A stretch of DNA of 64,000 nt from an uncultured Clostridia bacterium. Lineage in GTDB: Bacteria; Bacillota; Clostridia; TANB77; CAG-508. Position numbers and translations under genes: made by a program. Below are positions 16,156 through 18,796 of the stretch, one piece after another (positions within the stretch are counted from its first letter, which is position 1; the number at the start of each line of letters is the position of its first letter). The notes beneath the pieces are model-generated. The model worked only from the letters and a program-made list of their open reading frames with translations. It was not told where the DNA came from and searched no databases. The stretch spans positions 114,134 to 178,133 of the forward strand of contig CANQYM010000004.1 in NCBI GenBank assembly GCA_947628085.1, read 5' to 3'.

Positions 16156-17220
16156 TTATATATATTCTTCAACTAAGTCATCATGAGATTTTTTTTCATC
16201 ATTAATCTCTTTTTTTGGATAAAGGAGTTGAGTTGCAAATTCATCTCTTGATTTATATACAATATTTGCAAAATCAATATAGCAACTAGGTAATCCTTCA
16301 CATAAACTAAGTATACCATTTACCATTTGAGGAGTATTTCCCCTTAAAGCACATTCTAAAGCTAAAGATGTTTCTTCGTGATATGATTTCATTAAGTAAT
16401 TTAAAACATCTTTATAAGAAGAATGCTTTTTTGTTTCACCAGGAGCTTTCATTCTTGAAAATAAAAGTTGCTCTGATACTTTTTCAACATTTCCATCTTT
16501 CAACATTCTCTCGATTTCATTTTGATTTTCATAAAGTCCTAAAACTTTTTCATTATCATATAATGGATATAATTCTATTTCTTCATTATTTCTTCTCATA
16601 GACCAGTTTTCATCATGTCTATCATTATTTCCATATAAACAATCATATACCATCATTTGAATTGCTGAAAATCTATTTTTTTGTACTTGACTTTCAATAT
16701 GCTCCAAAGAAGTATTCCCTTTTTTTCTATAAAAATCTCTCGTACGATACTCTATTGCAGAAAGCACTACTTCTATATTATCATCTAAGTCTGCTTGTTT
16801 TCCATCTTTTGCTGTTAGATCATGAAATTTTCTGTTTTGTTCAAAACGGAAATAATCCAAAATAACTTTTCCTGGCTGTAATTCATCTCCTGCATCTAAA
16901 AGAGAATATACTAAGCATCCATCTTTTGGAATTGGTGTTCCATTATTTAGAAATTTATGAACATTTGGATAATATCTTGATAAATGTGCAAGTTCTGCAG
17001 GGCAAGACTTAACAGATGCATTTTTTGCTAGTTTATATCCTACTAATTCTCCATAATGGTTAGCACAAAATACTTTTCTATCTCCAAATTCAGCTCTTTT
17101 AGGCTTAAACAATGCCATTTTACTTTTAGCAGTATCTAAATACCATCTTTTTCCTTTTAAAATTCCTGTTGTTTCAAATTTATTTGGTACAAAACTATCA
17201 ATATTTTTGAAACTAAACAT
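16156..17220 (-). CDS. HipA-family (HipT-like) Ser/Thr kinase, paralog 2
   Basis: Catalytic motif VYDCLYGNNDRHDENWS (compare HipA FNVLIGNTDDHLKNFS) and YPLYDNE (compare HipA TPFYDIIS); N-terminal Gly-rich GILKGKRW; only 5 nt downstream of the HipS-like ORF. Confidence 0.6.
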   Translation of the reverse strand: MFSFKNIDSFVPNKFETTGILKGKRWYLDTAKSKMALFKPKRAEFGDRKVFCANHYGELVGYKLAKNASVKSCPAELAHLSRYYPNVHKFLNNGTPIPKDGCLVYSLLDAGDELQPGKVILDYFRFEQNRKFHDLTAKDGKQADLDDNIEVVLSAIEYRTRDFYRKKGNTSLEHIESQVQKNRFSAIQMMVYDCLYGNNDRHDENWSMRRNNEEIELYPLYDNEKVLGLYENQNEIERMLKDGNVEKVSEQLLFSRMKAPGETKKHSSYKDVLNYLMKSYHEETSLALECALRGNTPQMVNGILSLCEGLPSCYIDFANIVYKSRDEFATQLLYPKKEINDEKKSHDDLVEEYI

Positions 17221-17225
17221 CTTAA

Positions 17226-17597
17226 TTATTTCTCCTCTTCAACAATAAATTTATCTGTCATCAAAACTCCTTTTGTTTTTCTTAAATATTCAAATTCGTC
17301 ATATTCTTCCATTTGCATATCTTTTAATAATTCATCTAATTCATCTTTTGAGTATTTTTCTATTCTAGGCAATCTTATTTTAAAAATTGCAAAGATTTCA
17401 TCACTCTCATAAATTTTATCATAATCTGAAAAAGGTAAAATTGTTTCGCTGATTGCTCCTTCTTCTAATGCTTTTTCAATATGTGCTCTGCTTAATTTAA
17501 AATAATATTTTCCTTTTTCTTTATCTCTAAATAAAGCTCCTATTAAATATTTCTTTTGGGTTCTATAGTCAACCCATTTTAAATATAAATATTCCAT
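17226..17597 (-). CDS. HipS-like protein, resembling the HipA N-terminal subdomain 1 (123 aa)
   Basis: LYLKWVDYRTQKKYLIGALFRDKEKGKYYFKL…ISETILPF…IFKIRLPRIE follows the HipA_N pattern (LV.W…VG.L…F.Y…S.sLP…F..LLPEG); no HTH. Confidence 0.45.
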   Translation of the reverse strand: MEYLYLKWVDYRTQKKYLIGALFRDKEKGKYYFKLSRAHIEKALEEGAISETILPFSDYDKIYESDEIFAIFKIRLPRIEKYSKDELDELLKDMQMEEYDEFEYLRKTKGVLMTDKFIVEEEK

Positions 17598-17634
17598 AAG
17601 AAAATTATTTTCCTTTCATTTTTATATTCTATCT

Positions 17635-18735
17635 TTAAAGAGAAGGCTCGTCTAAATCTCCATTTTTATGTTTTTCTTTGAATTGTTGAACTACTTCGCT
17701 AATTTCTTTTTGTCTTTCTAAAAATATTTTCTTTGCAAATTCTTTATGCTCTGGAGACAATCCTTCACACACATCCATTACTTTTTCTAAATCAGAAAGC
17801 TGATATCTTCCAATATCTTGAATTGAATCCATTGTTTCATCATAATAATGTTCTAATAAATAGGTTAAAAGCTCTTTTGCACTAATGTGTTGAGTTTTTC
17901 CTGGAATTCCAATGCAAGTTGTTAAATAACTTTTTTTGAATTTTTCATATTCTTTTGGATTTGTTAAATATTTTACTACATTTTTTCTCTCTTCTTGCAT
18001 ACCAAGTATTTGTTCGTTATCAAATAATGGATAAAAACTAACTTCTCCTGTAGTTTGATTAGCTTTTAATCCAAAGTTTTCATCATGTCTATCTCTATTA
18101 GCAAACATTACATCAAATATACACATATCAAAAAATTGTTTTCTTATTTTTGGTATGTCTGCTGCTCTTCCTCTTTTTTTGAATAAGCTATTTATTGTTT
18201 CTAAAATTACTTCCACATTAGTATAATTTTTGTCAGAACTTGTTCTTCCTCTTTCTGTTAAATCTTTATATTTTTCTGAATGTGTTTTCTTATAATCTTG
18301 TATATATGTTGATATTGGAAGGAACACTTCTTCTTGTGATAATTGAAAGTGGCTTAATATTCCATCAACAGGAATCTCTTTTCCACTATAAGGATGTTTT
18401 ATTACTAATGTGCCTAAATCTACTTTACAAGCACTTTTTTCCAATTGTTTTAAAATTATATATGCAATATATTCTCCATAATGATTAGCATAATTTTTTG
18501 AATTCTCATATCTTTTATTATAACCTTGTTTTGATTTAAAGTGTCCAAAAGAAAGAGGTTGCTTAGTTCCTGGAAAACTAAGATCTGCGCTTATTTTTTG
18601 ATTTTCTAATGTAATGCCTCTACCTCTATATCCAGCAACATAAAATTTATTTTTAGGGCTGAATTCCTTAGGCACACCTAACGTTTCATTTATTCTTTCA
18701 CTTACTTCTTCTAAAGATTTTATTTTTTCTACCAT
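17635..18735 (-). CDS. HipA-family (HipT-like) Ser/Thr kinase, paralog 1
   Basis: FDVMFANRDRHDENFGL and FYPLFDNEQ motifs; clearly paralogous to 16156..17220 (ANHYGE…, CEGL…). Confidence 0.6.
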   Translation of the reverse strand: MVEKIKSLEEVSERINETLGVPKEFSPKNKFYVAGYRGRGITLENQKISADLSFPGTKQPLSFGHFKSKQGYNKRYENSKNYANHYGEYIAYIILKQLEKSACKVDLGTLVIKHPYSGKEIPVDGILSHFQLSQEEVFLPISTYIQDYKKTHSEKYKDLTERGRTSSDKNYTNVEVILETINSLFKKRGRAADIPKIRKQFFDMCIFDVMFANRDRHDENFGLKANQTTGEVSFYPLFDNEQILGMQEERKNVVKYLTNPKEYEKFKKSYLTTCIGIPGKTQHISAKELLTYLLEHYYDETMDSIQDIGRYQLSDLEKVMDVCEGLSPEHKEFAKKIFLERQKEISEVVQQFKEKHKNGDLDEPSL

Positions 18736-18767
18736 AAGTTCTCCTATTTTTATTCAATACTTTGTAT

Positions 18768-18796
18768 ATTATACCACAAATTTCCTTATATTTCAA
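18768..18796 (-). promoter_or_regulatory. Consensus sigma70-type promoter TTGAAA-17-TGgTATAAT for the HipA-like operon, overlapping the uvrB stop
   Basis: Minus strand reads cacTTGAAAtataaggaaatttgTGgTATAATat, then RBS aggag 6 nt before the ATG at 18735. Confidence 0.55.

Follow-up and report, generated by a model that had tools for sequence, protein, structure and literature searches.

Two HipA-type kinases and one HipS-like protein form a conserved three-gene operon in uncultured gut Clostridia

HipA-family kinases are models for persistence and toxin-antitoxin biology and, lately, for phage defence. The target of the characterised Hip kinases is an aminoacyl-tRNA synthetase; in the HipBST system, HipS neutralises the toxic kinase HipT, which targets TrpS. 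Gerdes, Baerentsen & Brodersen distinguished in 2021 ten Hip organisations, including hipIN (a kinase gene followed by a gene for HipS-HIRAN), hipJS (a kinase gene followed by one for HipS) and hipL (PMC8262856). All catalogued organisations carry one kinase per module. Here, we analysed a stretch of 64,000 nucleotides (nt) from an uncultured Clostridia bacterium (positions 114,134 to 178,133 of contig CANQYM010000004.1, assembly GCA_947628085.1; hereafter the window), in which two paralogous core kinases with intact catalytic residues, K1 and K2, flank a HipS-like protein, S, in an operon with its own promoter, ribosome-binding sites and terminator. A two-kinase organisation, which the original prediction for this locus knew of neither for HipBA nor for HipBST, is absent from the ten organisations of that catalogue (PMC8262856), and none was found in the later literature searched.

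The operon and its three proteins

K1 (17635-18735; 366 amino acids, aa), S (17226-17597; 123 aa) and K2 (16156-17220; 354 aa) were found head to tail, in this order, on the minus strand. The promoter lies at 18768-18796 (minus strand) and comprises TTGAAA, a 17-nt spacer and the extended -10 element TGgTATAAT; its -35 hexamer overlaps the uvrB stop codon TGA (18793-18795), where the original prediction had placed it. With 11 of 12 consensus matches this promoter is near-consensus, and it shares the best score in 6.8 kb with a site at 14808..14779; of these two top-scoring promoter-like sites, only the one at 18768-18796 carries the TG extension. The distance from the uvrB stop to the K1 start is 57 nt, and no terminator lies between them in the window. 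A Shine-Dalgarno sequence precedes each of the three genes. In the window, the gap between K1 and S is 37 nt, while only 5 nt separate the S stop from the ATG of K2, as predicted. Over 48 loci the corresponding medians are 16.5 nt and 1 nt, and the tightly kept S-K2 gap suggests coupled translation and matched stoichiometry. The operon ends at a bidirectional intrinsic terminator (16065-16095, both strands; 13-bp stem with six G-C pairs and a T-run on either side), which it has in common with a convergent purC-like gene. Its neighbours are uvrB, this purC-like gene and then uvrA; no helix-turn-helix (HTH) gene was found in or beside the operon, and K1, S and K2 have no HTH match in Pfam or NCBIfam, which bears out the claim that a HipB-like gene is missing.

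We then compared the two kinases with each other and with known families. The HipA catalytic motif and the downstream YPL(F/Y)DNE, from which the family had been predicted, are present verbatim in both proteins (FDVMFANRDRHDENF ... YPLFDNE in K1 and YDCLYGNNDRHDENW ... YPLYDNE in K2). K1 and K2 are paralogues that align with 28% identity over 290 residues (E value, E, 2e-35). Their similarity to each other amounts to 120 bits, compared with 47-67 bits for either of them against HipI or HipL, indicating a duplication in an ancestor of this lineage. In the Pfam profile searches proposed in the original prediction, the matches remained below their cut-offs, both for the kinases and for S. The PADLOC models for PDC-M03A and PDC-M03B matched much more clearly. 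Against HipA_C (PF07804), K2 scored 27.0 bits and K1 25.2 bits, below the cut-off of 30.5; many members of the K1 and K2 families carry precomputed PF07804 matches, indicating that the family straddles the HipA_C threshold. PDC-M03A models matched both kinases nearly end to end with E from 1e-23 to 5e-30 (PDLC04340: K1 E 4.7e-30, positions 42-278 of 280; K2 E 1.3e-23), and the equation of PDC-M03A with HipI is based on the example of prophage phiCDKH02 and on PMC11706625. An NCBIfam search of K1, S and K2 gave nothing useful, and PHROGs families of unknown function match both kinases and S.

The sole solved structure found by sequence for the kinases was CtkA of Helicobacter pylori, with E of 2e-5 and 7e-3 for the single kinase sequences and of 2e-8 (K1) and 5e-8 (K2) for the family profiles. 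An AlphaFold model of K2 (mean predicted local distance difference test, pLDDT, 89.8) gave CtkA as its best Foldseek match (E 2e-11, template modelling score 0.79), followed by HipA (E 1e-6), Legionella HipT (E 8e-6) and then Escherichia coli HipT; K2 and CtkA are only about 15% identical when aligned by structure. The model thus predicts a HipA/CtkA kinase fold for K2, and the same fold is predicted for K1 from its CtkA profile match and its alignment with K2. The assignment to the HipA family was right on these grounds, together with the sub-threshold HipA_C and the PDC-M03A matches. "HipT-like", the term first given to the two kinases, was imprecise, as they group with the small clade XI kinases (HipI/HipJ) and with CtkA.

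The catalytic loop D-x-H-x-x-N, the Mg-binding Asp and the pair of ATP-binding Lys and helix-C Glu are conserved in both families. Among 30 sequences each, K67, E88, D215, N220 and D239 are invariant in K1, where His217 is replaced by N or A in four of the 30, and K39, E58, D200, H202, N205 and D222 are invariant in K2. The K2 N-terminus is invariant from Met1 on, and K2 has a Gly-rich loop, G-x-L-K-G-K-R-W, that aligns with the loop GSGRSEKIW of the prophage HipI. The N-lobe of K1 is remodelled: it has a conserved N-terminal helix and, where K2 and HipI have the Gly-rich loop, an insertion of about 30 residues without a conserved loop. Sequence comparison thus places K1 and K2 among the core Ser/Thr kinases of the HipA/CtkA superfamily, as CtkA/HipI-like members.

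S scored 18.6 bits against Couple_hipA (PF13657), below the cut-off of 22.5, but when S and its relatives are aligned, 29 of these 56 proteins match the profile (E <= 0.01; best 1.8e-8), and several HipN- and HipL-like relatives score above the cut-off. The matches of the S profile to the PDB were marginal (HipA residues 10-92, E 0.07; HI_0666, E 0.17). The assignment was settled by fold comparison: the top Foldseek match of the S model (pLDDT 81) is E. coli HipS. S is thus predicted to have the HipS fold, that is, the fold of HipA N-subdomain 1, in agreement with the original prediction. PDC-M03B models matched S with E 8e-21 in their N-terminal half only (positions 8-114 of models 232-255 positions long), and Pfam found no HIRAN domain in S. 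S shares 29-31% identity with HipS-like domains from proteins of the HipN and HipL types, which also carry HIRAN and HipA_C domains, and 31% with the N-domain of the HipN of prophage phiCDKH02.

A profile search of 1.8 billion representative proteins returned 173 relatives of S. Among them are stand-alone proteins (110-140 aa), HipN-like proteins with Couple_hipA and HIRAN (225-250 aa) and HipL-like proteins with HipA_C, Couple_hipA and HIRAN (500-530 aa). We also observed a HipS-like domain fused to an RNase_T/DEDD exonuclease (P0377, 306 aa) and another fused to a YopX domain (P0400, 246 aa). The exonuclease fusion is reminiscent of a reported genomic link between HipA-HIRAN clusters and deoxydinucleotide-specific DEDD nucleases (PMC11706625).

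Distribution, variants and rates of evolution

Homologue searches returned 106 matching cluster representatives for K1, 203 for S and 123 for K2, nearly all from gut metagenomes. In a scan of one genome per species, S was present in 37 species, all uncultured Clostridia, from the guts of rabbit, deer, sheep, chicken, mouse and human; Candidatus Scatovivens faecipullorum is among them, as is one closed chromosome of 1.8 Mb. The order K1-S-K2 is unchanged in 45 distinct loci. With more than 100 homologues of each protein, this places the arrangement far beyond chance. Its ancestral position is between uvrB and uvrA: both the deepest branches and most of the remaining ones have the trio there, some with the purC-like gene and some without it. 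The trio loci outside uvrBA form one monophyletic clade, in which the trio lies inside an ABC-transporter operon, indicating one relocation of the whole cassette. K1-S-K2 is therefore conserved as a unit and has moved as a unit. The GC content of the trio, 0.25-0.28, is the native one.

Signals upstream of K1 are likewise shared among the relatives. Most related loci, whichever of the two genomic contexts they lie in, have a promoter of the form TTGA(T/A)T...TGGTAAAAT upstream of K1. A further motif, TTTACATAAA, was found upstream of K1 in 30 of 46 distinct loci when one mismatch was allowed, about sixfold above background. It often lies 78-84 nt before the K1 ATG (e.g. L009, L022, L025, L036 and L063), and its inverted copy TTTATGTAA is often placed within the promoter spacer of related loci; the motif is absent from the window itself. 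It may be an operator, though the module encodes no DNA-binding protein. No structured RNA or riboswitch was matched in Rfam at E <= 1 within 14300-21100. SOS control of the operon was considered and rejected: loose matches to the LexA (Cheo) box number five in the whole window, compared with 2.8 expected, and none lies upstream of uvrB, K1 or uvrA.

The three proteins evolve at very different rates. Mean divergence is 0.55 for K1, 0.31 for S and 0.50 for K2, compared with 0.14 for uvrA. Pairwise ratios of nonsynonymous to synonymous substitution rates (dN/dS) range from 0.13 to 0.7 in the kinases and from 0 to 0.22 in S; for uvrA and uvrB they are 0.02-0.05, so that the kinase values are 5-15 times those of the flanking uvr genes. 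Of the three proteins, S is under much the strongest constraint. In conflict systems, effectors typically evolve fast and their partner is constrained. The fast kinases and the constrained S thus support a toxin-antitoxin or defence type of system.

Natural variants of the trio were also found. Two loci (L034 and L038) carry K1 and an intact S without K2, in a third genomic context, and an outgroup locus (L073) carries a K1-like kinase gene followed by an S-like gene whose product is 46% identical to S; no locus with only S and K2 was seen among the loci retrieved via S or the kinases. L047 retains only a frameshifted S between uvrB and uvrA, which the frameshift marks as a decaying remnant. 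In L055, an orphan S (5001-5378) that is intact but divergent lies directly upstream of uvrA and has its own consensus promoter; it lacks several residues that are near-invariant in the family. We considered S as an independent uvrA-linked factor and rejected this, given the frameshift in L047 and the missing near-invariant residues in L055. The losses, leaving K1-S without K2 or S alone, form a pattern that fits toxin-antitoxin logic.

Among more distant relatives, the two-gene systems examined (phiCDKH02, L054, L057 and L073) all have the kinase gene upstream of the HipS-like one, the kinase being a remnant in L054 and L057. The nearest annotated relative is a HipA-domain and HipS-HIRAN pair (phiCDKH02_03/_02) between the repressor module and the integrase of the Clostridioides difficile phage phiCDKH02. 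In L054, a HipS-like gene without an intact kinase (5001-5399) lies at the edge of a QatABCD defence island, 1.4 kb from the gene for an 824-aa UvrA-like paralogue. Separately, we observed an orphan HipS-like gene without a kinase in a cluster of phage genes on a phage-like contig (P0372, 121 aa; L072, 4001-4366); a homologue of the RnlB antitoxin is encoded two genes away, with Thy1 and DNA ligase genes nearby. Its setting would fit a candidate phage counter-defence against Hip-type kinases.

Proposed mechanism and competing explanations

We propose, with about an even chance of being right, that the trio is a self-contained kinase-HipS-kinase operon from the hipJS/hipIN (PDC-M03) class, in which S silences one or two kinases of toxin-antitoxin or phage-defence type. 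PDC-M03 is a candidate defence system in PADLOC, and recent work validated kinases of the HipA family in phage defence (PMC13092281). By analogy with HipS-HipT, for which an N-lobe inhibition model is based on solved structures (PMC10627512; PMC9325769), S would dock on the kinase N-lobe at the position of HipA N-subdomain 1 and silence one or both kinases. In HipS, Glu63 and Trp65 hold HipT's Gly-rich loop outward in an inactive state (PMC10627512). Once S is titrated, degraded or displaced, for example by phage infection or stress, the released kinase would phosphorylate an essential cellular target, and growth would stop. The trio would most simply have arisen when an ancestral kinase-S pair was duplicated in tandem and the distal S was then lost. 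If one S serves two kinases, its much stronger constraint than that on either kinase would be accounted for. The constraint on S, the fast kinases, the loss of kinases while S persists and the movement of the trio as a unit fit one small inhibitor with two effectors. K2 appears the more likely effector, given its canonical Gly-rich loop and its probable translational coupling to S; K1 could be another effector, or could serve the S-K2 pair as its sensor or regulator.

Several observations weigh against this proposal. The distances of K1, S and K2 correlate with those of uvrA (r 0.84-0.86), which indicates vertical inheritance, and only one relocation of the trio appears in the tree. Such stability is unusual for toxin-antitoxin and defence genes. 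HipBST of Legionella is likewise conserved across that genus (PMC10653801). The trio was not found in a defence island or mobile element, its neighbours being the housekeeping genes uvrB and uvrA or an ABC transporter; S has no match on plasmids, and neither the S nor the K2 family has one among IMG/VR viral contigs. Only one phage record holds a distant hipIN pair. Moreover, the Gly-rich loops of the K1 and K2 families show no conserved Ser/Thr autophosphorylation sites of the kind found in HipA and HipT, and the module has no DNA-binding autoregulator. Every locus was retrieved via S or the kinases, so the absence of kinase-only loci is uninformative, and absences should be read cautiously. 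The cassette is vertically inherited within one lineage and is not a sporadic mobile element.

The uvr neighbourhood raises the question of whether the trio is instead a domesticated DNA-repair signalling module, that is, a lineage-specific DNA-damage regulator co-expressed with uvrB, with S as its regulatory subunit and kinases that would phosphorylate repair or cell-cycle targets. We regard this as unlikely. The uvrB-trio-uvrA arrangement has been kept though K1 falls to 28-39% identity, with uvrA/uvrB at 83-99%, but the gap also holds an unrelated, fast-changing purC-like gene and may simply tolerate insertions. Read-through from uvrB into K1 is likely in the window, where only 57 nt and no terminator separate them, yet the cassette has its own conserved promoter, and no LexA (Cheo) box precedes uvrB, K1 or uvrA. 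Relatives of S are fused to HIRAN or, in P0377, to a DEDD exonuclease, and HIRAN binds damaged DNA or DNA ends (PMC8262856). The vertical inheritance and native GC content also favour such a module, and the orphan S before uvrA in L055 and the HipS-like gene close to a UvrA-like gene in L054 point in the same direction; kinase-less S beside uvrA, as in L047 and L055, is kept as weak support. However, a whole clade carries the intact trio in an ABC-transporter operon and L034 and L038 carry K1-S in a third context, indicating that adjacency to uvrBA is not required, and the high dN/dS of the kinases relative to uvrA/uvrB is atypical of a housekeeping regulator. That the kinases are secreted and act as effectors on host cells, a role reported for CtkA, is highly improbable. 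Both kinases match CtkA best, in sequence and in structure, and the organisms are gut-associated, but CtkA activity depends on the secretion system of the tfs3 element (PMC5536186), and neither the window nor any locus examined showed a type IV secretion system or a conjugative element; a HipS-fold partner also points to control inside the cell.

It is harder to decide which kinase S controls. The original prediction paired S specifically with K2, and this pairing was not established. Under one alternative, which we consider doubtful, K1 and S are the sole functional pair, of hipJS type, and K2 is an S-independent accessory paralogue, for example a second effector that has a different target, or a decoy. 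In its favour, the kinase lies upstream of S in every two-gene relative examined, including phiCDKH02 HipI, and K1, despite its remodelled N-lobe, is the kinase that accompanies S in the two-gene variants of the clade (L034 and L038) and of the outgroup (L073). On the other side, the S-K2 spacing is tight, the Gly-rich loop that HipS targets in HipT is kept in K2 and lost in K1, and K2 is under purifying selection with invariant catalytic residues, indicating that it is not decaying. Distance correlations gave an outcome that varies with the variable controlled for: the partial correlation of S with K1 given K2 is 0.58 and that of S with K2 given K1 is 0.12, which weakly favours K1, whereas with uvrA distance controlled for the two are equal (0.47 for S-K1 and 0.44 for S-K2). 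Gene order in the relatives and the K1-S variants thus favour K1 as the partner, and the coupling and the Gly-rich loop favour K2; S binding both kinases would be the simplest reconciliation. A kinase-controls-kinase switch, in which K1 would sense a signal and phosphorylate S or K2, thereby freeing the effector K2 from S, seems to us quite improbable. K1, lacking a canonical Gly-rich loop but keeping its catalytic residues, could act in this way, and the signal might be DNA damage, given the ancestral uvrBA position and the HIRAN fusions in relatives. If true, the trio would be a chromosomally fixed HipA-family phospho-relay, serving as a growth-arrest checkpoint, and not a selfish toxin-antitoxin or mobile defence gene.

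Neighbouring genes and comparison with known systems

The genes and repeats around the trio showed features of their own. The purC-like gene (14976-16016, plus strand) encodes a SAICAR synthetase (NCBIfam PurC equivalog, 265 bits with a cut-off of 251). Its GC content is 0.48 in a genome of 0.27, and the gene at this position is GC-rich (0.36-0.51) in every one of more than 20 related loci. It is 30-62% identical between species whose uvrA genes are 88-97% identical, and its synonymous divergence is saturated, which suggests repeated replacement or an unusual constraint. In uvrB, a +1 frameshift at about 20550-20560 (minus strand, codons ~66-68; GCTCGGACAA, compared with GCTGGGCAA in the 98%-identical locus L015) splits the gene into open reading frames of 71 aa and 503 aa. 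The same split was found in an independent assembly of the same species that covers the region (L005), and a different +1 frameshift, a few tens of nucleotides upstream, was found in another species (L001-L004, L021); these are either real pseudogene or recoding events or a recurrent assembly error. Upstream of uvrA, at about 14570-14810 (minus strand), four tandem copies of a 17-nt unit (AAATTTATAATTCTTAT-like) lie beside an inverted repeat with arms of about 31 nt (GAATCTGTAAAAATATATTTATAAGAGTGAC ... GTCACTCTAATAAATATATTTTTACAGATTC) and a GC-richer core of about 85 nt. From its sequence, this region looks like a small mobile or regulatory element.

A conserved module in which two diverged kinases share a single HipS-like protein would give the family a new regulatory architecture, either one inhibitor for two kinases or one kinase regulating the other. 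The natural three-gene, two-gene (K1-S) and one-gene (S) forms are ready comparisons for HipS-type inhibition outside HipBST, and the fact that the trio has stayed so long and so stably between uvrB and uvrA in gut Clostridia with small genomes is relevant to whether such modules can become domesticated.

Compared with HipBST of E. coli O127:H6 and Legionella pneumophila, the trio shares a tripartite operon and kinases that consist of the HipA core without N-subdomain 1, and its tightly coupled S and K2 mimic hipS followed by hipT. However, the first cistron of the trio encodes a kinase and not an HTH protein, HipB is absent, and S groups with HipS-like domains of HipN/HipL type. The kinases are structurally nearer to CtkA than to HipT, as judged from the K2 model. 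In HipT, the Gly-rich loop carries the autophosphorylation motif S-psi-S/Q (PMC10627512); the K2 loop lacks this S-x-S motif, and K1 has no conserved loop at all. CtkA itself (JHP0940; PDB 3akj, 3akk and 3akl) is the best solved-structure match for both kinases and has the same catalytic loop, (G/A)N-x-DRH-x-x-N(F/W) ... P(I/L)(F/Y)D, but it is described as an effector of a conjugative element that acts on host cells (PMC5536186), a context absent from the trio loci.

The resemblance to the bicistronic systems is closer. As in hipIN/PDC-M03, a kinase comes first and a HipS-like gene next, and both kinases match PDC-M03A while S matches PDC-M03B. Unlike hipIN, the trio has an extra kinase and so is not bicistronic with a single kinase, its S lacks HIRAN and covers only the N-terminal half of PDC-M03B, and it is chromosomal and vertically inherited, whereas hipIN is found in prophages or genomic islands. 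With hipJS (clade XI), the trio shares a small core kinase without N-subdomain 1 and a stand-alone HipS-like gene immediately 3' of a kinase gene, as in K1 followed by S. Both systems are known from prediction and lack a HipB or HTH gene, so the missing HipB, which the original prediction had considered unusual, is already normal for hipJS and hipIN. Judged by the published description of hipJS, the trio differs from it by the second paralogous full-length kinase after S, giving three genes instead of two, by the length of its kinases (354-366 aa compared with 279-321 aa) and by the remodelled N-lobe of K1. Taken together, these comparisons lead us to rate the trio as a three-gene variant of the hipJS/hipIN (PDC-M03) class and not a new category; it is unusual in having a second kinase and in having been inherited vertically for so long at the uvrBA locus.

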